Part shown: positions 15,040-55,860 of the stretch, in pieces
Position numbering within the stretch: position 1 is the first letter of the stretch
Layout of the letters: each line of letters begins with the position of its first letter
From: Cyanidioschyzon merolae
Lineage: Eukaryota
Assembly (NCBI GenBank): GCA_000091205.1
Contig: AP006499.2
Direction: 5' to 3' (one strand)
Length of the DNA stretch: 64,000 nt
Translations under genes and position numbers: made by a program
Notes under the pieces: generated by a model
What the model was told of the DNA's origin: nothing
Databases searched by the model: none
Seen by the model: the letters and a program-made list of their open reading frames with translations, nothing else

Positions 15040-15330
15040 CAAGAAACCCCTCGATGAGCCCAGCACACGCGTAGCGTTCGCAGCGGCTCACGCCTGAGCG
15101 GATGAGGTACGCATCTCCTTCGTCATTGGGAGTTTCGTTAGGTTTCTTGTTCGTTAAAAAATACTCACGACACGATTCATGTGCATGTATATACGTTTAT
15201 TCCTGATGCTTGTAATGCAACTTTATCGGACTATGGATGGTGAACTGTTTTGGATTGCACTGCTATCGGGCGTTATGGGCTGGCACTGATGACACTACAT
15301 GTTGTTGCCGTACTGTCGTCGTTGTCTAGG
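15040..15330. repeat. Interspersed repeat R2, copy 1 (about 290 bp, non-coding)
   Basis: Aligns with 31020-31300: shared acgcgtagcgttc.cagcg...ggatgaggtacgcatc..., ...acgtttattcctgatgcttgtaatgca..., ...gggctggcactgatgacactacatgttgttgccgtactgtcgtcgttg... Confidence 0.7.
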
Positions 15331-15692: not shown

Positions 15693-15769
15693 AGGTAAAA
15701 ATATCTGTCCAATCGCAGACGCCTCCCAACGTCGTTTGACCGGTCGCCTGGTATCGGCTTCAGATTTTC
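15693..15769 (-). ncRNA. Conserved 3' module downstream of the Fanzor-like stop; candidate omega-RNA scaffold remnant (copy A)
   Basis: The reverse complement reads ...gttgggaggcgtctgcgattggacagatattttt. This aligns with the equivalent position in copies B, D, E, G and H. Confidence 0.25.
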
Positions 15770-15995
15770 CTCACATACTGCGCGAAGAGGCTGCCCCATA
15801 AATAAAGTAAGCTCGCCTCAGATCCCCGAGTCTCCTCTTCGGCACCGCACATCGTCTCATATTTGTGGCGGCGTTGATGTCACAGTTGACAAACTCCTTG
15901 CTTTTATTGCATCCGGGCGAAATAACCAAAGCAAGTATTTCTAGAGCTCATGTCCTCTGCGCCACGACAGTCTCGTCATCGTCCCGCTGGGTAAA
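15770..15995 (-). pseudogene. TnpB/Fanzor-like RuvC-III C-terminal remnant (copy A)
   Basis: The minus-strand translation reads ...VFTQRDDDETVVAQRT*... and FVNCDINAATNMRRCAVPKRRLGDLRRAYF. This is the D-x-NAA-x-N motif plus conserved tail; frameshifts and stops are present. Confidence 0.55.
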
Positions 15996-16513
15996 CACCT
16001 TTTCTCAACTTTTCCCCTTCTTCTGCTTCTTCGTCACTTGCTCCTCTTCTCACGATGGTATCGGAGAAGAGAATTTTATTGGTTTTCGTCCAACCCGGTG
16101 ATGATGGCCCTCCGAGATCCTCGAATTATACGCCCATACCATCGCATTTTATTTTTTATTTTGGAACATGAACACCCTTCTTCATGTCCTGAGGTGAAAC
16201 CCCTTCACGGAGGGAGAAGGACTTGCGGAAGACAGACGGAATGTGCCCCGGTGAGTCAAAGTTGTGAAAGCTTGATCAGTTCGCCCAGCGTAGCGTTCAT
16301 TACGTTTCACGGTACGACACATTCCTTCGATGTGTTGAATCACGTAGAGGAAGCATTAATGAAAAGCAGCTCTATCCGGATAGAATCCGCAAAAACTCGA
16401 ACCCAAAGGGCATCATGAAATACCAACTTGTATAGTTGAAGGACGTTACCAGATGTCAGGGAAAAGTCTTCAATGATTCGGCTAATTTGTACATGGTGTT
16501 GTATGAGACTTCT

Positions 16514-16987
16514 CTACGAGCGACGCTGAGGCCGCCATACGAATCCCTTGTAGCTAGACCAGATGATATCCTCGTTCTCTTCGAGTTCGGTCGTATATAA
16601 CATAATCCCTCCCCGCGAACACCCATATATGCGCCAACGGTATCGCCTGAAGGAACCATCATCAACTGAAAAAAGAAACCGACGTCCCTGTGCCTCATAC
16701 CGGTCGTGAGGTACCAGGAACACTTTCTTTGCGATTTCGTTGGAAGATGGACATGCTGTAACTAGTACCTTTTTGGGACTGTATCCCAGTGTTTTCAGGA
16801 CAGGATGAAAAAGCTGGTGAGGTGCAGAGACGCCCGTAGTGGCTACTGTTGTCGCTTCTACCTTCCGGAAGGTGAACGACGGTTCGCTGTCTGCCATTGA
16901 CCGCCAGCATTCTATAAAACTATCGGTTTCTGGCGTAAAGCGCACATACATCTTTCTTTCCACGTTCCTCAACCATCTGAGTGTCAC
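16514..16987 (-). pseudogene. Tc1/mariner-like (DDE_3) transposase remnant (copy A)
   Basis: ...VLKTLGYSPKKVLVTACPSSNEIAKKVFLVPHDRYEAQGRRFLFSVDDGSFRRYRWRIYGCSRGG... follows the Tc1 pattern L..LGY.RKK..P.LS..H...R..FA..H..W....W..V.FSDE..F. The catalytic DE is degenerate, reading DDGSF. Confidence 0.55.
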
Positions 16988-17277
16988 GGTGTGACTGATC
17001 TGAAGGAGAACTGCAGTCTTCCTTGCACTGTTCAGTACAAAGTATACCCTACAGACAATTCATCGACGATCTATAGAGCACACTGCAGAGTTATTTCGAT
17101 CTGCTGCTCTACACCGCATCCGCCGAGAAATAAAATTGAGTTGGAAGACTAATGTAGCCCTTGGGCCAGCGTCCGGCGGATACCGCTGCTTCTTGTACAC
17201 GCTCTTCGGGATGCATGCGGCAGGTACGCATCAACTCTGCATGACATGCATCCGCTTTGAGATCCAAAACCCCCTAT

Positions 17278-18632
17278 TAGATTATAAAGTGGAACACTGA
17301 ATTGTTTGCTCTGTTCCTGCCTCGTGATTTTCACCGAGTTTTTTATTCAGAAGCATAGCATCGACATTCCACGTGCAGCGATTGGGGCTCAGGGATTTGC
17401 ATGCACTTTTAGGATTTTCGGTGATAACCCTCGGAGTAGTTCCTACCGCTTTCATAGCAGGAATTCGTTACGTGACTAGAAGCAAGACCATTCGCGACGC
17501 AATCCAGAATGGTTTGTCCAGTATCCGCTTTCGTTACCCGCTGTACGCGTGCGAGCCTCTGCTCTTCTGCTTCCCTTACGAACAGCATCCTGCAATCGCG
17601 CGTTCTCCAAGCTCCCGATCCGTCCGTTGCGAGGCGACTCGCGGGCGGGGCGATTCGGGCCGCCGCCTCCGCGAGTGAAGGAGAAGTCGACGGCGAGCCT
17701 GTGAGGCTTCGTCTCAAGCGCATACCGAACCCTCTCTGAACGCGTTACGTCAAATCATCGATTTCACTCCAGAGACAAATCCTGCCCTCTCCCTCTGTGG
17801 GCATCGACAACACACCATGCAACATCGTCAGCAACATACCTCTCATGCGAAAATACGCCCACAAGTGCTCGTCTCCCTTGTTTGCATTACAAAGGGCCCT
17901 GGAGTCGGACGTCAGGCATCGTAGCGATCGCTTCCAGCAGAGCGCGTGTCACCGCTGTGCACGAAGAAGGGAGCGCAGACCGATCGACATTGCTGGGCGT
18001 GCGCTCCAGTCTGGATTCCGCCCCCGGTACATACCTGATCCCGAACGACGTCGCTTACCGCAAATCCTCTGTCGAACGGGGCAGCGGTCGCTTGCATTCG
18101 CAGTCGATAGCGTGCTCGCCAAGGCGATCGCCCAGAACAAGTCCGTGCTCTTTGGGTACGGCATCCAAGGCAGCCTTTTGCAGCGGTCAGTGGCATGCAA
18201 GGAGCGATGACGCGCGCGTTCACGTGCCACGAGGCGGTGCTCGAAGGAGCACGTGTGTGGCGTCAGACCCATGGAAGCACCTGAACGCAGTCAGGCGTCA
18301 TCGCTGCGGCAGCCGCACCGAAGCTCCAGAGACGTGGGCTCCAAATGGCCAGCAACGCACGGATCGTAACGACCGCTTGTGGATGCAGTGCTTGCGGATG
18401 AACCAGAAACAGCGAACGCCGGACTCGAACGCTGGCATCACCGTATCTCGACTGCTGCAGCGCGGCTGACGCGAATGCAGACATCGGCATTTGTAAGCCC
18501 AGTGATCAGCGAGAGGGACAGGAATCAGTCGCACTCAAAGCCCGCACAGGCTGATGTTGATGAAAATAGATAGAAGGAGAGCGGAATGCTAGCGTTTTTG
18601 CGACCGAGTTAGCTAACTGGACCCATTCCATT
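17278..18632. repeat. Right copy of the 1.36 kb inverted repeat
   Basis: Reverse complement of 8833-10196 at more than 99% identity by eye. It is also homologous, though diverged, to the direct-repeat units at 36485 and 42863, in the same orientation as those. Confidence 0.85.
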
Positions 18633-19100
18633 CTATTCTGGAATGAATATAAGACGCGCAACGCATTCGCAGAAGACGTACTGCGATGTCTAGCGCCGAA
18701 AATTGTCCAGAGTTCTAGGTGCTTCGCCAAATGCTCCTACAATGCATATCGAAGACTGCCGATTTGTGAGCATTAGGCCTCCTGTGCCATAGAGTGCGCC
18801 TCTCTTCCTCAAAGCAGGTACAGGTATCTCTTCCTCAAGAAATTCCGATCAGAATCACTTAAGAAGAATGCTATCCACATTGCGGCTCACCTGACCTTTT
18901 AAAAACTTCACACAAGAGTGCGCGTCGGTGACCCACATCAGACGCGTACCGATAACTGCAGCCGCTCCTCATGGACCTTGTCCAGGAACGCGTCTCTGCA
19001 GTAAATCAATCGCCTCTGCCGCGTAGCCACGCAGGATCGTTTATCGCGAATTTTTGCTCCTAGGCAGCACTACTCACTCTGTCCAGCAATCACGCGAGTG

Positions 19101-23560: not shown

Positions 23561-26179
23561 ACTTTGCTCTCTGCACTAGGACGAGTCCGACTGCAATCAC
23601 CATCATGTCCTACCACATTGAGAATGTCCAGAGACCGCATGACGCAGCGGTGACGGTCTTCGCTGTGGCATGTTTGCGCAAAAGCAGCATCCATACCGAT
23701 GCATCCGCACAAAGCGGGAACTCGTTGCCAAACACTCACCGTTCCGGCGGGTATAAGTGCCGTGAATGGTACCAGGCCCGAGGCTTCCCCGACTCCAGCG
23801 CTGTGCAATGACCTTCAAACAAAAACGCTCAAGCCGACTCCTGAGGCAAATTGCCACCCCGAACGAAATGCAGGGAACTCGCGTCCACGCAAAGGATCGC
23901 GTCCTATTTCACAGGATACTTGCAAGCGACACGCGTGTCTCTTAAACATAATGAAAACATCCACAGAGACCAACGATCGGGTTGCCTGGCTGGGGAGCAC
24001 GCACCTTACCATGCACACCCGCGCGAATGCATATTTTATTCCTCATCGACAATGAAACGTGCAGAGGTGCCGTGCTCGGTGCTTGAGTGAAATCAAATAG
24101 CAGAACTGCCCGGCACTTGCCATGCCGCGATCTCACAGGCACTGAACAGACGCCGGGTAAAGCGGCTCCCTTGGGTCGAGGCGTCAATTGTCCGTATCCG
24201 TCGAAAATGGAAGGCTGACATGTTCGCTGGGCTCCCGGCTATCGATGTTTTCCGACATTGTTTCCATGTACAGCATCGAGTATCGAACTGCAGCAATATG
24301 GGCGTACGAATTCATACGTGGTTTAAGATTCGTGGTTGTCTTTATCGGAATGGCTTTTACGAATCTATGCTGCGGAAATTTGTTTTGTTTATTTGTTTCA
24401 TTGACAAAACGTTTACATGGGCCAGCGTTCTCCAATTGTGCGCTCTTTCTGCTCCCACATTTTTTTGTGTTTTTTCCAGTACACGGTGAAGTATCCATCA
24501 AACGCCCTACCTCCAAGTTACATGTCCCATACTTCTTCTCGGATATTCAGGTCGTTTCATACGTCCTATCGTGTGTGCCTGGTGCCTGCCGAAAGCGACC
24601 GCAATGGAGTCTTTAGCGCCGATGCGTTCGCTGCACGGAGACAGAATGGCGTTGCCGTACCACACAGAGGGCATCGGCTCGAGATTCGTTCTGGTAAGGG
24701 AATCGGGAAGATTCGCGACGCACTCGAAAAAGCGTTTGAAAAAATAGATACCATCATCCAATTGAGTTTTGCATGCCCCCACTCTTCTCCTTTCGTTAAG
24801 CGTGGCGTGCTCAAATTATGCCTTCTAAATGTTTTCCATCCTTCTGTTTCACCACAACTCGTAAGAGCAGGAATTCGCACCGCTATATAGAAAAGGAAAA
24901 GAACTCGACAGTTTCAGTTGATGAGCGTTTTGTGGAAGCACCTGCCGAAAGCTATTTTGACTTTCCTTTATCAAATAATCGAGACAATTCGAATAACGAA
25001 TCCTCCTACTTTGCGGCCAGCGACTAGACGGTGTTCGACAAGATCACGCTACCTCTCACAGGGTTTGCGCGCAGAGGCACCAGTCTCGTCTGTTTAGATG
25101 TAACAGGGTCGTAGACTGCGGCTCGAGACATCGCAGCAGTTGCCCCATTGGGGAGCGCGTCACCGCTTCACACGACGAGAGCGTAGACCAATCGAATCAT
25201 TTCGATGTGCTATGCAGTCAAGGTTCCCCTTCCTGCACTGGTTTCATCAGGAGCAACATCGCGCTCCACAAAAAGCCTCTTTTATTCGCAAAATAGCAGA
25301 GGGCAGAATATAGGTCATCTTGCCTACTTTAACTTTTTCTCCGTTGTTCGACGCTATTCAGAGCTTGTTCCGGACCATGGCAAACATATTCATGGATTTG
25401 AATTACTTTTTCGGCAACCCGGATCGCCCTCGACACGACCAATACTCAGTGCTTTTGGCGCCGAAACTGCTGCCACTGGGCTCCTCCGCACCTGTTTGGC
25501 GCAATTTGTTCCCGTTCACGGATCGGGGACTTCCAAATAACCATGAACGATAGCGATGAACAAGATGTACAGAATGAATATGTAATGCATTCTTATCAGT
25601 AGAGGCACATGGCCGATGCGCACCTGGTACACCGAGGTAAGAACTTTCTCAGAGCAACAATGAAATCCCGGAGTATTTCGCTTAGAGGCGCATACCATCC
25701 ATACAGAACGTCGCCCATGTCGGACGCAACGCCTTCCTCCACGAAGCGCGTCGCATGGGCATCTTCTCGAACGAGGAGCTGTCTTCATCGCTACTCTACG
25801 GCACTGCGGTCGTGACGGCATATCTCGGACCACACTAGCTTATGCCGTGACATCGAGCCCGAAGAGAAGAGCGGGAACTCCATCGCCGCATTCTGAAGCA
25901 ACGCGATTGCCTCAAGCTCAAGCGCATGCACAGCTTGTGCGGCGTAGACCTTGGAGTCCTTCACCGCAATTGTGTTCCACCTCCGGGTACGTGTCATCAA
26001 GCGCTCTTTAGCGGTCTATATCAGACTTGCTCAGAGTGCGTTCATTTGAAGAAATAAAAAATCTAGGGGACAGGTATCGACATGAAAGTTGGAGATATTG
26101 CAGGGGATGTCGTCGCCGGCTGCCTGTAGAAAACGAAAAAAAAAATCCGCTTCTCGTCAGCTATCTAGCGAAGAAGGGC

Positions 26180-26535
26180 ATATGCTGAAAAAGAAGAAAA
26201 AGAAACAAAGAGAACGACGAGTCAAGGGGCTTGCCCAACCGAACGACAACGAGACTGTGGTGGCATAGAGGGCACGAGTTCGGGGACTCCTTCCAATAGT
26301 GAGTTCACCCGGAGGCCCTGCACGCAGGGAGTTCGCGAAACGAGACTTCAACGCCATCATCAATGTCAAGAGATATGCGGCGCTGAGGACGACACCCGCA
26401 TAGCTGACGCGATCTGTCGTCGTGGGGCAGCTCCTCAGGCTCAAGATCTACAGGGAGATGCTGAAATCGATAGCATACGGCCGGTCGGAAAAAACTGGGA
26501 GGCGCCTGTGACTGGGTGTAAACATATACAATCTA
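26180..26535 (+). mobile_element. Fanzor-like 3' fragment, copy D (C-terminal remnant plus conserved 3' module only)
   Basis: ...KGLAQPNDNETVVA... then REFAKRDFNAIINVKRYAALRTTPA*. The 3' module follows: ...ctcaggctcaagatctacagggagatgctgaaatcgatagcatacggccgg...aaaaactgggaggcgcctgtgactgggtgtaaacatatacaat. Confidence 0.55.
26401..26535 (+). ncRNA. Candidate omega-RNA scaffold remnant (copy D)
   Basis: The conserved segment immediately 3' of the Fanzor-like stop, aligned to copies B and G. Confidence 0.25.
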
Positions 26536-28258
26536 CGGTAGAAAAAGGTTTTTTCGCTCCATGGACTGTAACACGGACAAGTGATTCTAGATTGCGTGGT
26601 TGTTATCGGGGCCTGAGAAAACGTCCACCATTACGCAACATCCTTCAAGTTGCTCCAGACATCATCTATGCTTTCCTTCGGAGATGCTGGATCGTTCTGG
26701 CGATCCTCTGGAAACCGAGTCCACTGTGAGTGCCAACAATGGCATCTTATGCACCAGTACAGACGCCAAACGGAGACAGAGCGGCTTTAATGTGCTTTTG
26801 TGAGCGTCGGTTCGAGGGCTGCTCGCGCGAGAGGTCCCCGTCACAAGCAAGCGCAAACGCACGTCACCGTGGATATAGTGCAACCGGGGAATCTGGTTCA
26901 CATTATCGACGTTTCACACCATGGGGAACCAGGGTTTCATCTCGCGTAGATGCCCTTCCAGGTGCCGTTGAGCCACGCCGTCGCCTCGTGCGGCGAATGC
27001 GTCGTCACTGTACGGATCCAATCCCCAGCGCTGATGGGAGGTGCTGTTTACGGTTCTTCGAATGTGCTTATATTCGGACAGAAGCAGTGATCCCTCGACT
27101 GATCTCCACTGGCAATAGCGAATGCTGGGAATTCATGTCCAATGTTTCAAGCGTATACCATAAAACATTTTATCCGGCATATGATGCCGTTCTAGCAGCA
27201 GTGAGAAAGCCGCTCTATGTTTCTCGAATTACTGCTCATCAAACGCGTAACGCGGCCGGCAACTCCCGTGTTCCATCGCACGAACTGATGCACCATGACG
27301 GTCTCGTGCAGCGTCCTCGCTCGTGACTGTGTCGCCTTTCATGTCCGACGACTTCTGCGCCAGGTACTCAAGTTCGCAGCAATGTGGACGATAGATGCAG
27401 AGGGCCGAATTCGCAAATCCAATCGACTTCGAGCGAGCAGATGCCGCGCATCCTGAATACCCCTGTTGTTCCGTTCTACTATCGCGCACAGATAATAACC
27501 GCCGACGATGAGCTGGTTTCCGATGAACGAAGCTTGGCGAATGCAGGCTCGGGCGGTGTCTTCTTCAGATACGCAACCCATATCCGAACGCTAGCTGTGC
27601 CGATCCCCGCGCAGAGTGCGTCTCTGTGCCCGTGAGCCTCTGTGAGGGCAAAAGTTTACGCGCTAGCGCTCGGAAGCTAACGCTCAGCCTTGCTTCTTCG
27701 TGTCTCCGAGCTCGATCTCGCCTCAATACATAGCATGCAGCGCTATAACTCTGTGGGCTTCTTCGCTTCGCCTGGAACGTCCTCGGCGTCTGCGAGGCCA
27801 CTGTTGAGGAACGCGGTCCAGAAAGCCTCTGCTGTCCCTGGTGCGGCGTCATCCGACGTTCGTTCAGCGAGTTCCATGATGCCGTCGGGATTCACATAGT
27901 CCTCGCCACTGAGCCACCAGAGGTTCGCGTGTTCGTCGGCCCCGCTCTGCGCACGACCAAACAGCGTTCGAGCGCTCTGTTTGTGTTTCGTTAGAAGGCG
28001 TCGTATGGCGGGCGGAGCGCTCGCAAAGTCTTCATCATCTGACGACAACTCTGCGCGCAAAAGCACCCTTGACTGTGAGCACGTTGACACTAGTACTGGA
28101 CGAGACCTTTGGCAACCCAGCGGTACGGACTGTGGCACGAACATGTTATCGATGCAGTACGTCCCAACAAAGAACAGTGTCATCGCCAGCTCTCGCGCGC
28201 CGTTCGAGCACGCGTGTTTACAGTTCTCGAACGTGCTTCGAGGACGGTTTTGGAAGAA

Positions 28259-28948: not shown

Positions 28949-30100
28949 GGACTCAGGGAATTCGTACTATTGAGACCGCCTGCTCTGAAACTCGAGCGAA
29001 GTTGCACCAGCAATGGATTTGGGTTTCAAATCTGATCCTCCGATTTGTGATGGCGAAGCTCCCATATCTGTATCATACATATGGTACCGTGATCGGAAGG
29101 CTCTGGCTCTGGGACAGGAGCTACCCAGCAACAAAGTGTCGAACGCGAAGAGCCCAGCCTTCTGGCGCGGCACCGACACCCGTCACAATTTTCTGCGTGC
29201 GCGGCACTGCATTTCGCGTTGATTTACGTCACTGCACAGTACTGGACGAGGGGCCATGCCATCAGCGAAACGTCCACGGGAGACGACAGCTCAAATTGCG
29301 CGTCTTCTATGTATACGATTCTGGAACGCGGCTGGGTCGAATCACGACAGCGTACGGATTCTTTGTCTGTGGACACTTTTCGACGAGTGCTTTCGAGTGG
29401 CTGGAGAATTCGAACCCTAGTCGTGGAGATTCGTCGTTCTGGTATAGCCGTCCGAATGAGCTAGAGCGGTGCCTCTGACAGAGAAAGATGTGTGATTGCA
29501 TTCGAGCGGACGAGCTGCGGAGGTCTCCATGCCGGAGACCTAGCGCCAAACTGAGCACACAGCACAGACCTGCGGGCGCTCACATAGAGGAGAAGATTAC
29601 GCGCCGATTGCGCTCGATTTGCGAAACGGCGCCTGCAGATAAATGGTGGCATTCAGGGCTCGCGCTGTAACCACGGAGAATGCTCCGCCCAAACAGTTGC
29701 TACAGAGACACGAATACCCGTATCACGGGAGCAGATAGGGACTTGCGGTGTAGCTGTTGTATGAAAAGATCGTTTAGATTCATTTACTGTGCAGGAAGGC
29801 AGAACCAGAATCCCATCATGTAATCTAAAGAATACGATCGCCCTGGGGTTTCTGAGGTCTTTGGAGATTTTGCGTAGGCTCGCGCATGTTCTCCAGAAGA
29901 ACGATTGAACCGCAAATCTACGAACTGATAGCTTTACCTCGGAAATAAACGCCTATTCGCTACAAACACTACAGATCACAGTATGTATCGGACGCAAGAA
30001 CAGAGTGCTGGGAAACCATACGACGCGAGGTGGAGGACACAATCTCGACGAATTACATGCATCCCCAGGGCGAAGAACAACTTTTTACATCTATGGAGCG

Positions 30101-30159
30101 TATGGAAACCCATACGCAGACGCCGCGCAGCATTTTTGACCGGCCTCCTGCCACCGATA
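30101..30159 (-). ncRNA. Candidate omega-RNA scaffold remnant (copy H)
   Basis: Contains the conserved ...aaaaa.gctg.g.ggcgtctg... segment 3' of the RuvC-III remnant. Confidence 0.2.
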
Positions 30160-30790
30160 TCAGTTTTTACCCCAGCACACTTTGAGCTTGAGAGTCTGGG
30201 CCACGAAGTTGAATCGCGTCGGATCCTTGGGTCTCGTCTTCTGCACCGCACACTGTCTGATATTAACAGCGACTTTAAGTCTCAGTTCATAAACTTAATG
30301 CGCGTATTGCCCCTGGCTGAACTCACCAGTGGACGGACTGCTAGAACTCGCGCCTTCTGTGCCACTACGGTCTCTTCAGTGTTCCGTCGGGCACACACTT
30401 TTTCCCGCCTATTTCCACTCTTCCTCTACGTCACATGCTCGGCTTCGCTCGATGCTAGGTGACAAGACAATTTTGTCTGTTTTTTCTTGAACCCGGCGAC
30501 ATCGGTACTCCAGGATCGTCGACTTGCTTTTCCATAACTTTCCTTTTCTAATTTTTGTCTGAAAAAGAACGCTTTTTGAACGCTTCTTTTATAGACTGCA
30601 AAAAACCAATCGAATACACTTGTTTGAGGTTTGGAACTCAAATGAATTGAAAGACTGTACTTTGCTTCGACCCCAACGCAAATACAACTTTTTCCGGTAG
30701 AACAACACGCTAATTGATCGGGATCATGTTTCCCTCCAACGGCGACATGCGCGTCGTGTCTCATGTCTGCCCGATCTCCCAGGTGCGCTC
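30101..30790 (-). mobile_element. Fanzor-like partial copy H (3' half: internal segment, C-terminal remnant, 3' module)
   Basis: The minus-strand translation reads ...ETVVAQKARVLAVRPLVSSARGNTRIKFMN* and ...LKVAVNIRQCAVQKTRPKDPTRFNFVAQTLKLKVC. The 3' module reads ...ggtcaaaaatgctgcgcggcgtctgcgtatgggtttccatac. Region 30490-30790 matches the internal segment of copies A, C and E. Confidence 0.55.
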
Positions 30791-31019
30791 ACCGCCGCGA
30801 CGCATGCACCGCGCGAGACGGTACTCCGATCGATGAAGGACACGTGTCCGATGCCGCACTGGCACATGCGTGTTCTCACCAGCGCACTGCAGCTGCAATC
30901 CAGTGTCCTAAATCGGAAACTCACGTAGAATTATCTCCTGCTATAGGCCATGTCGCTGGTGCCCATCGCAGTACCGACCTGACATACAAGGAGATGTTGG
31001 GGCCTCCCACAAAAGCCCT

Positions 31020-31300
31020 GCAACGATTCCAGCAAACGCGTAGCGTTCTCAGCGACACACGCTTGTGTGGATGAGGTACGCATCACTCTACTCAATAGGA
31101 ATTTCATCAGTTTTATTGATCGTAATCAAACAATGTACGGCAGGGTTCCCGAACACGGATATGCGTTTATTGCCTATGCTTGTTATGCATGCTGCACGGA
31201 CGCTGGAGTATGGAACTGATTCGAATTCTGCTGGTATCCTGCGTCATGGGCTGGAACTGGTGGCAGTTCAAGTCATTGCCATGTCGTCGTCGTGCGTCGG
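31020..31300. repeat. Interspersed repeat R2, copy 2
   Basis: Aligns with 15040-15330 (see that entry). Confidence 0.7.
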
Positions 31301-31989
31301 ATTGTATTCGCTGAAAGGAAGCCGCAGGACTTGTGTAACGTATTCAAGAAGAAACTCACGATGCTTTTATTCGATCTATTTCCAGACACTACCGCTCCCG
31401 AGCCTAAATTTCTGGACAAGCGTCAATATACTGTCCTTCAATCCCCAAACTGCCTATTATCAAAGCCAGCGGGGCGACGAGGGGCTAAACGAGCCCAAGA
31501 GCCACCGACACCAGTTTTACGGCTGGGCACCTTGCTGAGCACATCTTCCAGCGTTGCCGTTGTGCCGAAAGGGTTTGACTTCGGGCCCGCACCGCTCAGC
31601 TTATCTTTCCACTGCCCCTGCAGGTCCCAAGGCTTTCTTTGCTTGGGCACACGATCAAGATAAGACTCAGAGCCGTCCCGAGGGGTCGCGCGGCCTCCGA
31701 TGCCGCCAGCCCGAGCTCTGGCAATTGTGCGCTCCGCAGAAGGCGAACGGGGCTTCGAGTTGCCCTGTCGCGCTAGAACGTCGCTCCATGCAAGCGGTTC
31801 ATTGTTCAAGAGATCTTGCAGATCTGCCGCACCTCTCACGAATACCTGGACAGCTATCTGCGAACAAGACACCAAACCGAGCGCTCCGAAACTCAAGGAA
31901 GCCATGTCACCACAGTCGAGTCCGAACAAGGGTAAGCGAACGGCGCCTCGCGAAGCGTGACCTGGGAGGTGCACTGCGAGATCTCGAAC

Positions 31990-32069
31990 GAATGTTGACA
32001 ACTTGACCACAGACGCCTCCTAGAATTTTTGGACCGGCCACCTACTACTGGTTCCAACTTATTCTTGCA
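31990..32069 (-). ncRNA. Candidate omega-RNA scaffold remnant (copy E)
   Basis: The reverse complement reads ...ccaaaaattctaggaggcgtctgtggtcaagttgtcaacatt, aligned to copy G ...aaaaagcctgggaggcgtcttctggtggatatgcatatac. Confidence 0.25.
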
Positions 32070-34450
32070 TCATTCCACCTTGAATGGTTCTCCCACAAAA
32101 TTCTCTCTTGTCATCTCTGGAAGTCTTTTTTCCATCACCACACATTTCCTGATATTGATTGCGGCGTTAAAGTCTCGGTTCACAAACTCCATCCGTTTCT
32201 TGCCATCATTGATTGTACTTACTAATGCAAGTCGCCCATGAACGTTCGCCCTCCTTTCCATTTGCTGTCCCGTCAGCGGTCCGTATTTTTCATATCCTCA
32301 GGGCTCCGCTGGCACTTTTTTCATCTCGAATCTCTGAAGTGTGCATCCCAGTTCATGGTGTATATACAATGCTCGGAACTCATCGATCGGTAGCGGAACG
32401 AAACGCCTTGCGCACTCCTTGTACGTTCTCGCCGGTGGAGCTGGTGTAGTCCCTTTTTGGGTCTTCCAGCGTCCTGCTCCGTTTGCCACTACGAGCCTCT
32501 GACGTTCATCCTCCTTCAAGCCACTCAACTGATTGAAAAAGTTGGCAAACGCCCGCTGCTTCCCACAATACAGGTTCATTCGCAGACGAGCCCACCGAGG
32601 CTTTGTATACTCTTTCCACAGCGCATCCCAATGAGCAACGCGACCTTCCATGAATTTCCGAAAAGCTTCAAAGTCCGCTCCTCGACTCGTCACCTTGCTC
32701 AAGGCCTCCAGGTGCTCTTTCAGTTATGCGTTCCACGTCTCGATTTTATTCCTTGCATTCATGATTCTGGAATCTCGATAGTTTCTTGCTCTCGAGAACT
32801 TTAAAATACTCATGCCTTTCTGAAGTAAGTTGCCGTGGATTCCATCTTCCGCACGCTTGGGTACTGCGGTGGTTATGATACTTGTGCCCCAGGGTCCGCG
32901 CCAACGACAAGGTCGTTATCCTGCACTTTCTGCGTCGCAGAATCCGCCTCCTTCTCATCTTCATGCTTCGTTACGGGCGAGGCCGAGCATGGAACAAGAC
33001 GATCCGCCTTCAGGCGCCGACGGTGTACACACATGGATACCCCATCGGTTTCGATCACCCCAGCGAATACCTTTTGTTCGCTGACTTTCAAACGTTTGAT
33101 TTCGAAGATATTTTTCTGGTACTTCTCCCGGTTGACACCGGTGACCTCCTTCCTGCTAACCTTGAACTCCGGACAGATCTCCCTCATGATGCCATGAAGG
33201 ACTGCGGAATCGATGGTCACGAAATGTGCCCTGATGTTGCACAACGGAACCACGTTGAAGCGCTTCTCCATTAGGAACGCTTCCGTCTCTCAGACGCTTC
33301 ATTGTTCCCGCGATTCAGCTCCATCTCCGCCTTGGGTTCGAGCTCTCGGTCTGGGTGCACGAAATAGCGCATAATTAGGGGATATCATCATTTTTTCACC
33401 TTTTTTCATATCTGATACCTTTTCTGCTGGGTTGACCGGCCTCAAGGGTGCACGGTGCTCATGAATAGTCGCACGGATTATAGAATCCTCATTCGTGCAC
33501 CTGCGTGATGTCTTCTTGTCGACGAACTCGATCTCCTGTTCAAGCTGCCGATCGTCCGTCATCCCATTGGTGATGGCCCATCTTTCCTTCGCGAGAGAGA
33601 CCCGGTTGGAGTGCAAACACGGCGCATATCATGAAGCCCTGGAGGTTCATGGTTAAACGGTCTCCAAGTTCGTTAGGTACCGCATGGCCCCGTGGGTGTA
33701 AATATTCCAGTCCCTCTGAATCGAGTACCGTAGAAGCTGTAGAAGGGATGCTTTTCGTGGAGGGCATGCACCCGCTCATTTCCCCTCGAGGTTTCCCCTG
33801 TGGCGAGCACCAGGTGGCGAAGAAGGGTCCTGCTGAAAAATTCTTCCGGAACCTCGGCTGTTTCGATGTCGGCCACGTCTTCATTCATCTCCTTCACCAA
33901 ATGCATTAGCCCTGACGAAGCCTTTATAACACTCATGGAGTAAGACGCAACACGGTTTCTGGGAGTCTCTTGCAACGCTTCCTTGGACGGATGCTTGATA
34001 TGTTTAAGATGGCAGGCTTTGACAACCATCACGTCGTTGTGCCGTCTTTCTTGCAGCCTTTGACGTCGGGCCTCCTTCATTTGCTTCTTTGTCTCGTCCT
34101 GTTCCTCTTCGCACTGGACTGTGTGTTCGTTTGTATCCGCCAGCTGACGACACTGGGCCTCCAGGAGCCTCCACTTTCACTCGCATAACTTTCCTTTTTA
34201 ATTTTTTTTCTGAAAAAGAACGCACCTTGAATGCTTCAGGTATAAACAGCGAAAAATCACTTGAATACACTTACTTGAGGGTTGGAATACGATTGAACTG
34301 AAAAGCATACTTTGCTACGACTTCAATGCAAATACACCGCGTGCAGCAGAACAACACGCTCTTGATACCGATCGCGTTTCCGTTCAAGAGCAGCATGCGC
34401 GAAGTGTCTCGTGTAACTGGCTGATGTCTCTGGTGCACGTGTCCAGCCCC
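31990..34450 (-). pseudogene. Longest Fanzor(TnpB)-like copy (E, about 2.4 kb), frameshifted. It has a RuvC-I-like GxDxG motif, a candidate RuvC-II, and RuvC-III D-x-NAA-x-NI.
   Basis: Minus-strand ORF pieces run in order. 33271..32873 ends ...[15 protein letters not shown] (RuvC-I-like). 32702..32298 reads ...VPLPIDEFRALYIHHELGCTLQRFEMKK... (candidate RuvC-II Glu and degenerate zinc-finger region). 32261..32070 reads ...GKKRMEFVNRDFNAAINIRKCVVMEKRLPEMTRENFVGEPFKVE* (RuvC-III). The 3' module is at 31990-32069. Region 34160-34450 matches the internal segment of copies A, C and H. The short copies lack the central roughly 1.9 kb present here. Confidence 0.55.
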
Positions 34451-35419
34451 CTACAGAAAAAAAACAGAGACTCACGACTAACTGGCAACGATATGACAAT
34501 TTCTTTCCCCCCTCTAAGGTAAACGTTAAAAGGCGAAAAGGTTTCCATATTGTCGAAAGTTTATTTTATAGGCGAAACGTCCCGCGAGCCGGACGTGTCT
34601 GCCAGACCAGTGCTTCATGCGACCCCAGTGGAAGGTGCTTGCTGGAAACCCGAGCAACTCGTGCGAAATGCAGTTTATTATGAGACTAGGAGCGGGTATG
34701 CTGCGTCAGGGCGTCGGCCTGGTCGCAGTTATCTCCTTACATATCGCTTGGCGCTGCCGCAGGCACTAGGTCTGTCTGCAGAGCTTGCAGGCTCCCAGAA
34801 AGATTATGTACTCTGGCTCTGTATCGGGAAAAGCGCTCCTCGATTCGATGCCCTCTGTGGTACGGTAACGCGGTTTTGTCTCCGCGATCCATCTGTTCCA
34901 GCGGTTTAGGCGCCACTACGGGTGCTCGTGGTAGGTACTCGCGCACGCTAGAACGTAAAAACCGACCAGTATGTCCGAGATGAAGTGTAAGAGATGGATC
35001 TTAGTCGGCCGGGGCGGGAAGGGCAGCATGATGAGCGCTTCCTCGAAAGCCACTACCCATCCATCCCGAAATCTGGGATCCATGGTAAATGTAAACGTTT
35101 GTCATCGAAAAAAAACAGATCGAAATTAATATGCAATTCACCGTTTAGATCGAAGACGAATTGTCTCTAGTATGTATATTCTTTATTGAAGAGTGCAATG
35201 AGGACTGCATGGTTCCTTCAGGTCAGTCATAGCAGGTCACTCAGGTGGTTGACGAACACTGAAAGAGACCAACAGATGCGCTACGCGCCGAAAACTGATA
35301 TTCTTCAGGCCTGCTTGCGGTCAATGATAGAAAATGGTCCGTTGATAATGCTACCGAAGAGCAAAAGCTATGATAATAGACGTCAAGTAGGTGTCTCTGT
35401 TTCTCACTAGTTTGTTCAT

Positions 35420-35713
35420 GTGGTCCAGCATACAGGGGGATACAGTCGCAAGAAAGTCCTAGTTCACGAACGGTCATCTTCCAATGAAATCGCAACGACA
35501 GCGTTCCTGGAGCTCAGCGATCGGGACAGAGTACAGGAACGTCGGGTTGTTTCAGTTGATGAGATTTCCTTTCGACAAAACGGTCGGAGCATGTATAGGC
35601 ATTTGTGGGGAAAAGAGCCTGTTATATATACGATCGAACTCGAAAATAACTCGGACCTCATTATCTGTTCTAGCTGCAGTCGATTCACTCTCCGGCCTCA
35701 GTCCCGCTCGTAG
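35420..35713 (+). pseudogene. Tc1/mariner-like (DDE_3) transposase remnant (copy B)
   Basis: ...GGYSRKKVLVHERSSSNEIATTAFLELSDRDRVQERRVVSVDEISFRQNGRSMYRHLWGKEP... fits the Tc1 pattern, with FSDE-like VDEISF and downstream Y.W..G. It is truncated, with no second Asp or Glu block. Confidence 0.55.
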
Positions 35714-35874
35714 AGAAGGCTCATCCAACAGCACCAACCATTCCGTCGAATCATTGAAGACTTTTCCCTCACGTCTCGCGACGTTTTTCCACTGAAAAAC
35801 GTGGTATTTCAGCATTACCGTCGCGGTCGAGTTTTTGCCGATTCTGTCGGGGTAGAGTTGGTTTTCATTTCTCC

Positions 35875-36342
35875 GTGAGCTCCGTGATTCGGTCCCATCG
35901 AAGGAGAGTTTTCGATCGAAAAAAGGTAATGATCTCTCCACTGGGCGAATTGATGAAGCGTCCAGCACACGATGACACCGCGGACAATGTCGTCTCTCTT
36001 CTGCAAGTCTTCCTCTTTCCGGGAAGGTCCTCATTTAGGCACATTCAAAAGTGCGCCCATTCGCAGAAAATGAGGGATGAACTGAGGTGTATATTTCAGA
36101 AGGTCGAGATTGAGAGAAGGCAGCGGAGCGCTTCGGTGATAGGAAAGCACAGAGGGCTGACAGAGCACCACATGACGCTGAGGGTGCGAATTCGAGGACT
36201 ACTTGCACTGGTGAGTTCAACCAGCAGCAAAAAACGCATGAAGTTCGTGAATGGTGAGTTTAACACTGAGAAAAATACAAGGAGATGTGCATTGTTGAAG
36301 ACGAGACGCGAGGAGCTGACGCGAGCGAACTTTATGGGGTAG
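35875..36342 (+). pseudogene. TnpB/Fanzor-like C-terminal remnant (copy B)
   Basis: The ORF ends ...SSKKRMKFVNGEFNTEKNTRRCALLKTRREELTRANFMG*. This is the degenerate D-x-NAA-x-NI context (NGEFNTEKN), conserved with the other copies. Confidence 0.5.
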
Positions 36343-36443
36343 CCTCTCGGGTTCGAGGTGTACAAGGAGAAGCTGAAGCCGATCGCAGGGTGCCGGCCAA
36401 ATACGGTTTGAAGGCGCCTGCCGTTGGGCGAATATACATACTC
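36343..36443 (+). ncRNA. Candidate omega-RNA scaffold remnant (copy B)
   Basis: cctctcgggttcgaggtgtacaaggagaagctgaagccgatcgcagggtgccggcc...gaaggcgcctgccgttgggcgaatatacatac aligns with copies D and G. Confidence 0.25.
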
Positions 36444-36484
36444 AAAAGTCGTGGAATGTTGTTCGTTATACTGGAAAGAATACT

Positions 36485-37747
36485 CGTAGTCAAACCATGA
36501 GGGCTCACCAACGCATGGGTACTTTTAACAACATCAAGCGTTGTTTTGGGACGGCCTCTTCCACTCCTTGCCGCTGGATTTCGTTACCTCACCGCCACCA
36601 AGATGAGTCGTGACGCCCGCTACAAAGCGCTCCTAAAATAACCGATACCACTATGCAGCGCATTCATAAACCACTGCGCGCTTCTCCTTTTCTTACGAAC
36701 AGCACGCTCAAATACCCCATTCATCTGGCTCTCCGTCTAGCGGTTCCATGGCAGCTCGTGGGCGCACCAGATCGCGCCCCTATATCGCGACGACGAACAC
36801 CCGACGTCGGCCGTTCACGAGTGTTCTCAGACACTCATGCCGAAAGCCCAACGGGGTTCTCACGTCAAATACTCCTCTCCGCTCTCATCGCACGCCCCCC
36901 TCTCTTCGCGCCCGTCGACGAGCCGGCACTCAACAGCGACACCGTATGTCTCTCCAGCTGCAGGCTCGCTACGGCTCCCGCGTCTCCCGTTTCCATGGGA
37001 AAGGGGCCTTGGACGCGGGCGCGCGCCGTCGCAGCGGCCGCCTCCAGCAGAGTTTGCGTCACCGCTCTGCACAGCGGGAGCGTAGACGGATCGAACCAGC
37101 TGGGCTGGATATCTCCAGCGCGGATCTCCCTCTTGGTGCCCCGCCTCATCGTGGTCAGCATTGCGTTGCACGGATTCTCCCGCGGACTGGACAGCGTGCG
37201 CGTGCGCATGCGCCCGCCCAGAATACGCGCCGTGCGGATCGCCCCGAGCGAGCCCGGGGTCTGTCGGTACCGCACGAGACGCCGAGACGGAACGAGGGCG
37301 TCGAGGCGACCCTTCTGCATCCGCCAACGACATGTATCGGGCGACGAGGGAGGCCCTCGGTGGATGAGCTTTGTCGGACATGTTGTCACACCTTACCACA
37401 GCCGATCATGGCAGCTACGTTGTGCGTCTCGAGGCTGTACACAGCGAAGATGGCAATGGCAAGCAAAGCATATATCGTGACGACCGCCTCTGGATGAACT
37501 GTTTCAAGAACACCTGGTGGCAGCGAAATCGGGACTTGAACACTGCCATCAGCATCCTTCAACAGTCGACAACGGACTCCGAGGGAGCGGAGCGTCCAGC
37601 ACGCTGACTGGCGGACATAAGAAAGGAAAACGGAGCATTTGCAGAAAGAGTCTGCGAGGGCTGGTGTGCATGACAGTACGATGAAATCCAAACCTGTGCG
37701 AGTACGCCCGTGTCAGGATGCCTGTTCCATTTCATCCCGACATGCGT
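36485..37747 (+). repeat. Left copy of a 1.27 kb direct repeat (same GC-rich repeat family as the inverted repeat at 8833 and 17278, diverged)
   Basis: Near-identical to 42863-44147. The ORF pair 36653..37480 and 43030..43878 is identical except for a 21-nt indel (...GGPRWMSF... versus ...GGPHAPWSGPRWRSF...). It starts cgtagtcaaaccatg and ends ...catcccgacatgcgtg. Blocks such as gtcaccgct.tgcac..gggagcg.agac.gatcga......ctgggc are shared with the inverted-repeat unit. Confidence 0.85.
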
Positions 37748-42368: not shown

Positions 42369-42862
42369 AAGATGAGGTGCTCGGGCCCCAGTCCGTCCAA
42401 AAAGCTTTCAAGCAGGAACGTATGCAGCACAAGCGGTACGACGAAGCAGCCTGCCTTTCGATCTTGAGCGCTGATGCGTACCGTTCGGCGAAAACTCGCG
42501 CCCGCCACGGGATCGGCAGAGGCGCAGTGTGCACCGAACACTCGCGTTCGCGCCAAGCTTGCATGCGGCGTGCGGATGTCAGCGCATCGCCTTCTGAGGC
42601 GAAGTACGACACGCGTATTCGGTTCTCTTCAGCACCTGGACCGGTTTCAGCGCCGCGGATCAAACGCAATCAGGATCGAAAGTCACAGAAAAGGCCTCGA
42701 GGGCCCGTATGGACCATGAAATGTCCGAACCTAAGGCACGATAACTGACGTGAACGCCAGAGCCCGACACAGCAGGAAGAAAAAATCCAGCTTTGAGCTA
42801 CTCCTTCTGATCCTGCATTTCCATTTTTCTCGAAATGTTTTAGATGAGCAGTGCCGAGGTTC

Positions 42863-44147
42863 GTAGTCAAACCATGTGGGCTCACCAACGCATGGGTACT
42901 TTTAACAACATCAAGCGTTGTTTTGGGACGGCCTCTTCCACTCCTTGCCGCTGGATTTCGTTACCTCACCGCCACCAAGATGAGTCGTGACGCCCGCTAC
43001 AAAGCGCTCCTAAAATAACCGATACCACTATGCAGCGCATTCATAAACCACTGCGCGCTTCTCCTTTTCTTACGAACAGCACGCTCAAATACCCCATTCA
43101 TCTGGCTCTCCGTCTAGCGGTTCCATGGCAGCTCGTGGGCGCACCAGATCGCGCCCCTATATCGCGACGACGAACACCCGACGTCGGCCGTTCACGAGTG
43201 TTCTCAGACACTCATGCCGAAAGCCCAACGGGGTTCTCACGTCAAATACTCCTCTCCGCTCTCATCGCACGCCCCCCTCTCTTCGCGCCCGTCGACGAGC
43301 CGGCACTCAACAGCGACACCGTATGTCTCTCCAGCTGCAGGCTCGCTACGGCTCCCGCGTCTCCCGTTTCCATGGGAAAGGGGCCTTGGACGCGGGCGCG
43401 CGCCGTCGCAGCGGCCGCCTCCAGCAGAGTTTGCGTCACCGCTCTGCACAGCGGGAGCGTAGACGGATCGAACCAGCTGGGCTGGATATCTCCAGCGCGG
43501 ATCTCCCTCTTGGTGCCCCGCCTCATCGTGGTCAGCATTGCGTTGCACGGATTCTCCCGCGGACTGGACAGCGTGCGCGTGCGCATGCGCCCGCCCAGAA
43601 TACGCGCCGTGCGGATCGCCCCGAGCGAGCCCGGGGTCTGTCGGTACCGCACGAGACGCCGAGACGGAACGAGGGCGTCGAGGCGACCCTTCTGCATCCG
43701 CCAACGACATGTATCGGGCGACGAGGGAGGCCCTCACGCGCCATGGAGCGGCCCTCGGTGGAGGAGCTTTGTCGGACATGTTGTCACACCTTACCACAGC
43801 CGATCATGGCAGCTACGTTGTGCGTCTCGAGGCTGTACACAGCGAAGATGGCAATGGCAAGCAAAGCATATATCGTGACGACCGCCTCTGGATGAAATGT
43901 TTCAAGAACACCTGGTGGCAGCGAAATCGGGACTTGAACACTGCCATCAGCATCCTTCAACAGTCGACAACGGACTCCGAGGGAGCGGAGCGTCCAGCAC
44001 GCTGACTGGCGGACATAAGAAAGGAAAACGGAGCATTTGCAGAAAGAGTCTGCGAGGGCTGGTGTGCATGACAGTACGATGAAATCCAAACCTGTGCGAG
44101 TACGCCCGTGTCAGGATGCCTGTTCCATTTCATCCCGACATGCGTGT
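42863..44147 (+). repeat. Right copy of the 1.27 kb direct repeat
   Basis: See 36485-37747. The spacing between the two copies is 6378 bp. Confidence 0.85.
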
Positions 44148-54528: not shown

Positions 54529-55113
54529 TGTCCAAAGTCTCCTGTTGATTAGTTACTCGTGAAACACAGAGAGGACCATCCGCCCTGAGAAACCAGAACG
54601 CAAAGCCGCTACTGTGCTGGGCGCTCAACAAAACGGTGGCGCACGCGCATCAGTGACGTGTGTTTCCCGGTGCGACGTTGCGCGGTATTTAGTGCAGAGC
54701 GGTCGAGCTTCGGTAACACAACTGTCTTATCTATGAGGACACTCGCATTCTATGCTGGGAGCGCCCAGAAGCGCACTTCTCGTCTGAACCGGACGTAAGG
54801 GCATATGGTGTTGTATCGTCTGGTGCGCTGCGGTCGATAGTGCGCTTGACGGCGTTGGACGATGTAAGGCGCACTTGAACGTGCCTGGTCGCGGTTTCGA
54901 CTGTCGACTCAGCCTCTATAACGTCTAGGCGTTTTCTCTTGTTTTGTAAGTCGCGGAAAACGTACAATAGACAACGCAGCTCCATAGCACAATACACACA
55001 AATTAGTCGAGCGCACGGTGGGAGGTCGGTTGCGTCTCGACGGCAGCGAGCAGGCTGCACGCTTTCTGGAGCGAAAAGTTTCGCGACCATAGAATGTACA
55101 CAAATAAACCTAC

Positions 55114-55542: not shown

Positions 55543-55860
55543 ACCTATTCCTCGGATTTTTTTTATTTGAAAATGAACGCACTTCTTTATGCCCTTAGAT
55601 GAGGGCCTTCCTGGAGCGAGCAGGATTTGCGGAACAAAAACTACTTGTGCCCCGGTGTGTCACCGTGCAGAACGCTCCAGGGACTCGCCCAGTGGAGCGA
55701 TCATTATGTTAAAGGATACAAAACACTCCTTCGATGAGGTTGAAACACGTAGAGCACGGAGGAATGAAAAGCAGCGCTATCTGGATAGAATCTGCAAAAA
55801 CTCGAACGCATCGGAAATGGTGCAATGCCACGTTTTCCAGTAGAGGGAAGTCGGCGGACG

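Follow-up and report, generated by a model that had tools for sequence, protein, structure and literature searches.

Positions 32010-35107 (minus strand) of the window, the whole 64,000-nucleotide stretch of Cyanidioschyzon merolae DNA that was analysed, are, with a probability of about 95%, one of some 150 old copies of the transposon CMe-1A, now dead, whose short relatives represent older non-autonomous lineages. This copy, called copy E here, belongs to an already-known family catalogued in 2013 from the C. merolae genome itself, and the finding is correct but ordinary. CMe-1A was published as a 3169 bp element with about 150 copies at about 80% identity, carrying TE-N2_CMe as its first 635 bp (5') and a single-exon gene for the 734-aa CMe-1 protein (Bao & Jurka 2013, Mobile DNA 4:12; PMC3627910). 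The CMe-1A consensus and CMe-1 protein sequences used here come from the supplements of that paper. Copy E would thus be a remnant of a TIR-less DNA transposon of C. merolae 10D whose sole gene encodes a 734-aa Fanzor1.

The extent of copy E follows from comparison with the consensus. By blastn, consensus positions 1-3083 (of 3169 bp) correspond to window positions 35107-32010 on the minus strand at 82.9% identity over 3111 columns, and global alignment gives 82.7%. The copy is decayed, complete at its 5' end and truncated at its 3' end. Its 5' module at 34461-35107 (minus strand) is the non-autonomous TE-N2_CMe (consensus 1-635), at 82% identity. A preliminary description had bounded the gene at 31990-34450; its ORF runs from 34186 to 31983, and the element continues 650 bp further 5', to 35107. 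Two non-syntenic metagenome copies (L003 and L001) have these element limits too, and the CMe-1A unit occurs repeatedly, its ends defined, across many non-syntenic loci. Among the metagenome loci no orthologue of the copy E insertion was found, the highest identity being 79%.

The right end of copy E is gone. Homology is still recognisable down to about 32010, but alignment to consensus 3084-3169 gives 43% identity, which is random, and the right-end tail of the consensus has no significant match downstream of copy E or elsewhere in the window. The loss amounts to the last 60-86 bp or so. As for the flanks, a run of Ts consistently lies just 5' of CMe-1A/TE-N2 left ends, where TTTTTC is followed by CGATGACA across the junction, and this run could be a target motif. 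By eye, the 5' end, CGATGACAAAACG, looked as if it might form an imperfect TIR with CGTTTGYTGTYG, which lies immediately beyond the published 3' terminus; about 10-14 extra nt after that terminus are conserved.

The pseudogene and its catalytic residues

The CMe-1 pseudogene at 31983-34186 (minus strand) is the remnant of a 734-codon ORF, interrupted by nine one-base frameshifts (at about 34125, 33712, 33661, 33585, 33390, 33280, 32887, 32321 and 32291) and three in-frame stops (33387, 32726 and 32072). Once repaired, its translation can be aligned over the full length of the published CMe-1 protein (541 of 734 residues identical, 73.7%), which bears out the earlier view of a frameshifted Fanzor-like gene. 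Nucleotide identity to the consensus within the ORF is 83.9%, with mismatches at codon positions 1, 2 and 3 of 15.7, 11.4 and 20.5%. The preliminary description had quoted three minus-strand ORFs, 32873-33271, 32298-32702 (containing IDEFRALYIHHELGCTLQ) and 32070-32261 (containing NRDFNAAINIRK); all are exact as written and form successive pieces of one gene in N-to-C order. The first is linked to the frame shared by the others through a 1-bp deletion right after GADPG, and nothing but an in-frame stop divides the remaining two.

The catalytic candidates had likewise been chosen correctly. RuvC-I contributes D431 in GADPG (32894-32896, minus strand), which holds the DPG motif and is directly followed by the deletion at 32887. 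RuvC-II contributes E603 in IDEFRA (32379-32381, minus strand; consensus VDEFRTS), within the pattern (V/I)DEFR, and RuvC-III contributes D672 in the NRD of NRDFNAAINI (32172-32174, minus strand), both placed by alignment. Upstream of these residues lies the WED-domain TDG motif (IETDGV, residues 380-382; 33041-33049, minus strand), a Fanzor1 hallmark described in PMC10711439.

Copy E is dead: with nine 1-bp frameshifts, three stop codons and no right end, it can yield neither the protein nor a guide RNA with a proper terminus. A functional copy E, whose frame changes represent introns or programmed recoding, is highly improbable. Introns are known in Fanzor1 genes of some other eukaryotes, but the published CMe-1 gene is single-exon (PMC3627910), and each frame change in copy E comes down to one base gained or lost against the consensus, with no inserted block. 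Furthermore, the three in-frame stops fall within conserved, alignable codons, the right end is missing, and near-intact copies elsewhere have continuous ORFs.

Copy E is indeed the best template in the window for reconstructing the ancestral protein, as had been proposed, but a full consensus protein for that use was already published in 2013, and copy E itself adds nothing new. The useful outcome is that a motif-based call was validated and that the limits of the copy, its nine frameshifts, its three stops and its lost right end were mapped.

Fanzor1 fold and a clade without the zinc finger

In eukaryotes, bacterial TnpB has homologues in the Fanzor1 proteins, whose tested members are RNA-guided double-strand DNA endonucleases. 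Membership of CMe-1 in this group emerges from a deep family profile (A2, a 79-sequence alignment), which matches the PDB sequences of PpFz (9cf0, 2.1e-22), SpuFz (8gkh, 4.4e-15) and GtFz (9cer, 2.3e-6), whereas a narrow 17-sequence profile (A1) found no match among PDB sequences. The A2 matches extend over RuvC-I, RuvC-II and RuvC-III, so the predicted alignment of the frameshift-corrected protein to Fanzor1 across all three motifs holds. In A2 the RuvC-I aspartate column is invariant and the P and G of DPG are at least 90% conserved. The RuvC-II glutamate column is also invariant and aligns with DEFRTS/DEYKTS of PpFz and SpuFz, while the RuvC-III aspartate is at least 90% conserved and aligns with their NRD. 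The RuvC-II glutamate of copy E thus sits at the 'alternative' position, immediately ahead of where a zinc finger would be, in a DE(F/Y)(R/K)T(S/T) context.

Structure prediction agrees with the profile. The repaired C-terminal 400 aa of copy E have 178 homologues (best E=4.6e-193), far more than chance could produce. One of them, P0005, is 67% identical to this segment by BLASTP with 99% of the query covered, and was modelled with AlphaFold (AF2; pLDDT 84.3, pTM 0.79). In a Foldseek search with this model the top seven matches are SpuFz, PpFz and GtFz structures (TM 0.62/0.60, best E=2.6e-13), and Cas12 proteins come after them at E>=7e-3. The model supports a Fanzor1 fold, with WED, REC and split RuvC, in a close homologue of copy E. 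Neither the raw ORF fragments of copy E nor six close full-length homologues had a significant Pfam match; the only match, below threshold, was the Cas12f1-like/TnpB TNB domain. A precomputed 'DUF8286' label was weak.

That sub-threshold match, together with the metagenomic origin of the homologues of the repaired protein, could be taken to mean that the gene is a bacterial TnpB acquired by contamination or recent horizontal transfer and no eukaryotic Fanzor. Such an origin is barely credible. The window belongs to the nuclear genome of C. merolae: five of its ORFs are identical to annotated C. merolae 10D proteins (BAM82017/22/23/25/30), and eukaryotic housekeeping genes also lie within it. 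An oomycete host, which a GC content of ~53% and a scarcity of introns had suggested, is rejected by these exact protein matches. The metagenome contigs themselves carry eukaryotic genes (SMC, helicases), and their identity to the C. merolae consensus is 79-89%. The nearest solved relatives are Fanzor1 proteins, with Cas12 far behind, and the Fanzor hallmarks DPG and TDG are both present in copy E.

The region between RuvC-II and RuvC-III holds no C4 zinc finger (CxxC...CxxC): no CxxC pairs are found, and the consensus reads TSYTHHELGC...EKC.... The preliminary description had noted a degenerate zinc finger here, which is right as an observation, but the property belongs to the whole clade. 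In 72 of the 79 A2 sequences the interval contains 0-2 cysteines, and, judged by this alignment, the absence is a clade-wide loss and not decay particular to copy E. Given this loss, even intact CMe-1 proteins are at most putative nucleases. The CMe-1 clade thus has no canonical zinc finger, yet its catalytic triad and Fanzor1 fold are preserved.

Short relatives and their 5' modules

Six short copies lie in the window. They keep the start-codon region, the last ~350 bp (a RuvC-III coding remnant and the 3' end), or both. In those of type II, consensus ~968 is linked to ~2840 through some 115 nt of unassigned sequence, and those of type I begin at consensus 2737. The copy at 30060-30794 (minus strand, type II) comprises consensus 660-969, about 115 nt of filler and 2840-3084; it has no TE-N2 module but a 5' module of its own (type c), which extends beyond 30794 on the upstream side. 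The copy at 25967-26569 (plus strand, type II) has consensus 801-969, filler, and the RuvC-III remnant with the 3' end. In the four others the 5' side is taken by a 950 bp module, termed X, which is absent from copy E. Two of these are of type I: 35116-36435 (plus strand) carries X, as a decayed DDE_3 transposase, followed by consensus 2737 to at least 3011, and 62182-63540 (plus strand) carries X followed by 2737-3082. The former stands head to head with copy E, 8 bp (A8) from its 5' end, and is without the first ~80 bp of X. The remaining two combine X with a type II junction: 55067-56521 (minus strand) has X, consensus 869-969, filler and 2864 to at least 3010, and 15701-17149 (minus strand) has X, the ATG region, filler and 2890-3084. 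A derivation of the ~115-nt filler of type II copies from diverged consensus 970-1075 found no support with nhmmer.

The preliminary description had regarded the short copies as internal-deletion derivatives of copy E, and several of its observations stand. About 1.8-1.9 kb of coding sequence is gone from the six copies, as seen at the ~968/2840 and 2737 junctions, and the start-codon region and 3' coding end are common to them and copy E. The 5' segment of copy E does recur near RuvC-III remnants: 34148-34436 and 30497-30786 are 74% identical (E=5e-45), giving the copy at 30060-30794 some 290 bp of the copy E 5' leader, and shorter pieces adjoin the remnants at 25967-26140 and 55476-55584. 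That a simple internal deletion produced them directly from copy E or its CMe-1A subfamily is nevertheless improbable. The short copies are only 66-76% identical to copy E, X replaces its 5' region in four of the six, and the two junctions, consensus 2737 and ~968/2840 with 115 nt of filler, are incompatible. Past consensus 3083 the short copies agree with each other and not with CMe-1A, and so have another 3' terminus. Finally, the short family also occurs in metagenome contig L072, and a full-length X-type parent is found in contig L058. The six copies are best read from these alignments as older non-autonomous lineages that probably did not derive from copy E or the CMe-1A subfamily. The term 'MITE-like' applies to them only loosely, in the sense of non-autonomous deletion derivatives: they are 1.3-1.45 kb long with decayed coding remnants, and alignment of their termini established no TIR or TSD. 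P-MITE reports no MITEs in C. merolae.

The nature of X was recognised at the level of its consensus. Translation of a consensus of nine copies matches Pfam DDE_3 (PF13358; E=3.9e-12, 46.7 bits against a cut-off of 28.6), with weak IS630/Tc3 HTH matches as well; ORFs of individual, decayed X modules have no Pfam match, and the X consensus has none among PDB sequences. The 5' end of X reaches at least 80 bp further upstream than first estimated. The consensus-level Pfam match suggests that X encodes a decayed mariner/IS630-type DDE transposase. In contig L058, a full Fanzor ORF follows directly after X, and in the four short copies X likewise precedes the Fanzor part; this points to a mariner-like transposon as a presumed earlier carrier of the CMe-1 Fanzor lineage. 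A family published as unclassified presents a Fanzor core behind several interchangeable 5' modules, one of them mariner/IS630-like.

Guide RNA, activity and known systems

The non-coding RNA that guides Fanzor1 proteins, termed omega or reRNA, has the element's 3' end as its template and runs on into the flank. An RNA-guided nuclease role for CMe-1 may be inferred from homology to the tested Fanzor1 proteins. At the 3' end of the element, Rfam gave no match, and RNAalifold found no consensus structure among copies, although dead copies under neutral decay make for a weak test. Folding of the consensus 3' end was no more stable than that of shuffled sequences (z=-1.46), and covariation, in two counts over 45 copies of this end, did not exceed shuffled controls. 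Copy E or the short copies might still donate guide RNA to Fanzor1 made by intact copies elsewhere, since the 3' ~350 bp in which Fanzor/TnpB guide RNAs are encoded is kept in all copies. This is very unlikely, as copy E is without the right end that would set the scaffold-guide junction, the copies have fallen to 67-83% consensus identity in apparently neutral decay, and neither conserved RNA structure nor covariation was found at the 3' end.

A broader and still doubtful proposal is that CMe-1 constitutes an active, zinc-finger-less Fanzor1 system in a thermo-acidophilic alga. Intact copies would supply the nuclease, and the T-rich flank, TTTTTC before CGATGACA, would serve as the target-adjacent motif (TAM). 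ORF-less relatives with the 3' ~350 bp would be trans-mobilised or guide-RNA-only satellites, and the DDE_3 gene of X-type relatives would represent the original mobilising mariner-like transposase. Since growth of C. merolae takes place at about 42-45 °C and a pH of about 2, intact CMe-1 would be an obvious choice in a search for compact nucleases that tolerate heat.

A comparison of copy E with known systems begins with published CMe-1A, which shares its family and genome, TE-N2_CMe 5' module included; relative to that consensus, copy E is a pseudogene without the last ~86 bp. PUl-1 and similar elements of Pythium ultimum, Rhizopus and Mucor are Mariner-Fanzor1 composites (Bao & Jurka 2013; PMC3627910). 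The PUl-1 layout, a small DDE_3 mariner/IS630-like gene directly upstream of Fanzor1, is also that of L058 and the four short copies. In contrast to PUl-1, the C. merolae X-type transposase is decayed in every copy seen, no TIRs or TA target-site duplications were established for the C. merolae elements, and CMe-1A itself has TE-N2_CMe in place of the transposase module.

Despite a sequence identity of only 13-15%, CMe-1 shares the DPG, TDG, DE(F/Y)(R/K)TS and NRD motifs with Spizellomyces punctatus SpuFz (PDB 8GKH/9CEU-9CEZ), PpFz (Parasitella) and GtFz (Guillardia), whose fold is common with the homologue model (TM 0.6 over ~600 residues). Unlike these three proteins, CMe-1 and its wider clade have no CxxC...CxxC zinc finger between RuvC-II and RuvC-III. 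Bacterial TnpB (IS200/IS605 and IS607; e.g. ISDra2) has the same RuvC D-E-D nuclease core, with its gene at the 3' side of the transposon and the guide RNA at the right end, an arrangement that is established for TnpB and would hold by homology for CMe-1. CMe-1 differs from TnpB in having DPG instead of D-hydrophobic-G, a relocated RuvC-II glutamate, much larger REC/WED insertions, a eukaryotic nuclear host and no TnpA.

Copy E as a member of the CMe-1A family

The three minus-strand reading frames and peptides that the preliminary description ascribed to a frameshifted Fanzor-like gene are present in the window sequence. A three-frame read of 31900-34700 connects them in a single frame-hopping path as pieces of one gene. 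Both this observation and its main interpretation were correct. The repaired C-terminal 400-aa translation of copy E, used as a query, retrieved 178 homologues (best E=4.6e-193, 60-76% identity), all unnamed proteins on JGI hot-spring-type metagenome contigs that also carry eukaryotic genes. Peptides of the family matched the Fanzor1 protein CMe-1 and the 3169-bp transposon consensus CMe-1A, both published by Bao & Jurka 2013 (PMC3627910). Those authors put the number of C. merolae copies at about 150, with each matching the consensus at about 80% identity, and give no TIRs, undetermined TSDs, a 734-aa single-exon protein and unknown classification; the 5' 635 bp constitute another element, TE-N2_CMe. 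Copy E belongs to this already described transposon family of the same genome and is not new.

By blastn, consensus positions 1-3083 correspond to window 35107-32010 on the minus strand, with 82.9% identity over 3111 columns (82.7% in a global alignment). The element is therefore 3.1 kb long rather than the 2.4 kb first proposed; the shorter interval, 31990-34450, is the Fanzor 'core' downstream of the TE-N2 module. Its ORF runs on the minus strand from an ATG at 34186 to a stop codon ending at 31983 and carries nine 1-bp indels relative to the consensus (~34125, 33712, 33661, 33585, 33390, 33280, 32887, 32321 and 32291) and three in-frame stops (codons 267, 488 and 706). Repaired codon by codon, the translation matches CMe-1 at 541 of 734 residues (73.7%). 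Mismatches to the consensus at codon positions 1, 2 and 3 amount to 15.7, 11.4 and 20.5%, a pattern indicating that decay has been mostly neutral, with a faint trace of past purifying selection.

In copy E the final 86 bp of the consensus are unrecognisable (43% identity), and they have no match downstream of it or elsewhere in the window; in other copies they comprise a GC-rich segment resembling a hairpin, followed by a T-run and a terminal GAAAGGCG. Residence in a transposon and the pseudogene state of copy E are directly established, and the frameshifts, stops and missing 3' end mark it, judging from sequence, as a dead, non-functional, 3'-truncated copy. Near-intact copies exist elsewhere, one with a single stop (L001) and others with open frames of 778 (L010) and 772 (L007) codons. 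As a non-functional copy of a known family, copy E is of low interest; minor leads are a Fanzor1 clade devoid of the zinc finger, a transposase module, and observations at the termini (T-run, possible 3' extension and E/X junction).

Fanzor1 membership of the protein

Pfam gave no match establishing Fanzor, and a narrow profile likewise failed. An exhaustive representative search found 1492 relatives, and in a 79-sequence alignment (A2) residues D431, E603 and D672 (CMe-1 numbering) are invariant or nearly so. The A2 profile matches the Fanzor1 proteins of Parasitella (E=2.1e-22), Spizellomyces (4.4e-15) and Guillardia (2.3e-6), with the DPG, DEFRT and NRD motifs aligned. An AlphaFold2 model of P0005, a close homologue of the protein of copy E, built with A2, reached pLDDT 84.3 and pTM 0.79. 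In a Foldseek search of the PDB its top seven matches are SpuFz, PpFz and GtFz structures (TM up to 0.62/0.60, E=2.6e-13), and Cas12 proteins rank after Fanzor1 with E>=7e-3. Homology and fold of the protein family and the catalytic triad are directly established.

Yoon et al. 2023 (PMC10711439) list hallmarks of Fanzor that copy E carries: DPG, a RuvC-II glutamate in the alternative context and the TDG motif of the WED domain. The A2 clade related to CMe-1 keeps D-E-D, DPG and TDG along with a conserved 'RGLLWC' motif. The clade as a whole is devoid of the canonical zinc finger (CxxC...CxxC) in the interval from RuvC-II to RuvC-III, where 72 of the 79 sequences have 0-2 Cys. The zinc finger was rightly called degenerate, yet this is a trait of the family.

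By analogy with established Fanzor/TnpB biology (PDB 8GKH entry title; PMC10711439), intact CMe-1 is predicted to act as an RNA-guided DNA endonuclease that takes its RNA from the right end of the element. For this putative RNA there was no Rfam match and no consensus structure, covariation lay within controls, and the fold z-score was −1.46; such uninformative results are expected because neutrally decaying copies are poor material for RNA tests.

Short copies and other repeats of the window

Self-comparison of the window revealed six shorter relatives near 15.7-17.1, 26.0-26.6, 30.1-30.8, 35.1-36.4, 55.1-56.5 and 62.2-63.5 kb, and reproduced the 5' segment match to copy E (34148-34436 against 30497-30786, 74% identity). 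In each of the six, the RuvC-III coding remnant survives together with the 3' region to about consensus 3083, and relative to CMe-1A they fall into two junction types. Type I copies (35116-36435 and 62182-63540) join the 950-bp X module to consensus 2737 onward. Type II copies (30060-30794, 25967-26569, 55067-56521 and 15701-17149) consist of consensus 884-968, containing the start codon and 21 codons, then ~115 nt that do not match the CMe-1A consensus significantly, then consensus 2840 onward. About 1.87 kb is missing in type II, in agreement with the estimated 1.9 kb.

They are deletion derivatives, as proposed; descent from copy E does not hold. Identity to copy E is only 66-76%, the X module is also present in two type II copies, the 30.1-30.8 kb copy has a different 5' module that is itself repeated, and past consensus 3083 the short copies share a 3' tail unlike that of CMe-1A. 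The same short family occurs in a metagenome contig (L072), and at another locus (L058) X immediately precedes a full-length Fanzor ORF. From these comparisons, the short copies are most readily read as derivatives of related, older lineages.

The window also holds eukaryotic housekeeping genes with few introns (DNA polymerase epsilon, Spo11, CTD phosphatase, pantothenate kinase and DAHP synthase), and five ORFs are identical to annotated C. merolae 10D proteins (BAM82017, 82022, 82023, 82025 and 82030; CMQ114C is among the locus tags). A 1375-bp inverted repeat (8828-10202 and 17271-18645, 99% complementary, arms 7 kb apart) encloses a gamma-glutamyltranspeptidase gene and the 15.7-17.1 kb short copy. 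Direct repeats at 36484-37651 and 42861-44049 (99-100% identical, ~6.4 kb apart), each with a ~275-282-aa ORF (36653-37480 and 43030-43878), lie on either side of the CTD-phosphatase and Spo11 genes and look like a segmental duplication of recent origin. A 265-bp repeat of 72% identity lies between copy E and the 30.1-30.8 kb copy (31029-31293) and beside the 15.7-17.1 kb copy (15060-15322). Stand-alone fragments at 24506-24683 (+) and 59908-60132 (−), without Fanzor sequence, are 70-76% similar to the ~250 bp with which CMe-1A begins, and hence to TE-N2_CMe.

Termini, 5' modules and the X transposase

A T-run directly precedes the left ends of CMe-1A/TE-N2_CMe at about 20 loci (L027, L029, L030, L037, L039, L040, L059, L060, L062, L071, L072 and others), often as TTTTTC immediately before CGATGACAAAACG (TTTTTC|CGATGACA...); in copy E it is T8 (35108-35115). 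The run may represent a TAM or target-site motif, or else a part of the element that has gone unrecognised. At the other end, the 10-14 nt past the published CMe-1A terminus (…GAAAGGCG) are semi-conserved as TTYGYTGTYG at about 45 loci (e.g. L054:6842+, L064:4579+, L060:6884+), so the element may extend slightly beyond the consensus. Judged only by eye, this stretch and the 5' end (CGATGACAAAACG) match imperfectly in inverted orientation.

At its 5' end (…TGTCATCG as read on the plus strand, to 35107), copy E stands head to head with an X module at 35116, with A8 (8 bp) between; the first ~80 bp of other X copies are missing from this one. The junction string 'TGTCATCGAA' also occurs inside other X copies, and 'GTGTCATCGAATGC' occupies the corresponding place in them, so the junction falls in a 10-bp string common to both elements. 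This could reflect either a preferred insertion site or a rearrangement mediated by microhomology.

Many further copies start at consensus ~646-690 and have different sequences upstream. The core (from ...AGCGCACCTGGGAGATC...) occurs behind at least four or five distinct 5' modules (alignment of metagenome loci near consensus ~665; window 30794-30930): X, the TE-N2 type, an inverted TE-N2 end and two further types that are also repeated. The presence of each in several copies suggests repeated 5' exchange or capture.

X is a ~950-bp repeat upstream of Fanzor remnants, found in the window at 35116-36065 (+), 62182-63185 (+), 55585-56521 (−) and 16130-17149 (−) and in metagenome loci L058:3603-4571, L072:8136-9117, L060:10-927, L029:7-945 and L078:6817-7403. 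Every copy seen is decayed, and Pfam found no match in single copies. The translated nine-copy consensus matches DDE_3 (PF13358; E=3.9e-12, 46.7 bits, cut-off 28.6 bits), with weak IS630/Tc3 HTH matches. At this consensus level, X is predicted to encode a mariner/IS630-like transposase. Bao & Jurka left the C. merolae family unclassified and did not give a mariner/IS630-Fanzor1 layout for it (PMC3627910), and a search of one paper collection found none linking the family to such a transposase. The arrangement of X and Fanzor is like that of PUl-1 and others in Bao & Jurka, in which a small mariner/IS630-like transposase gene is followed by Fanzor1.
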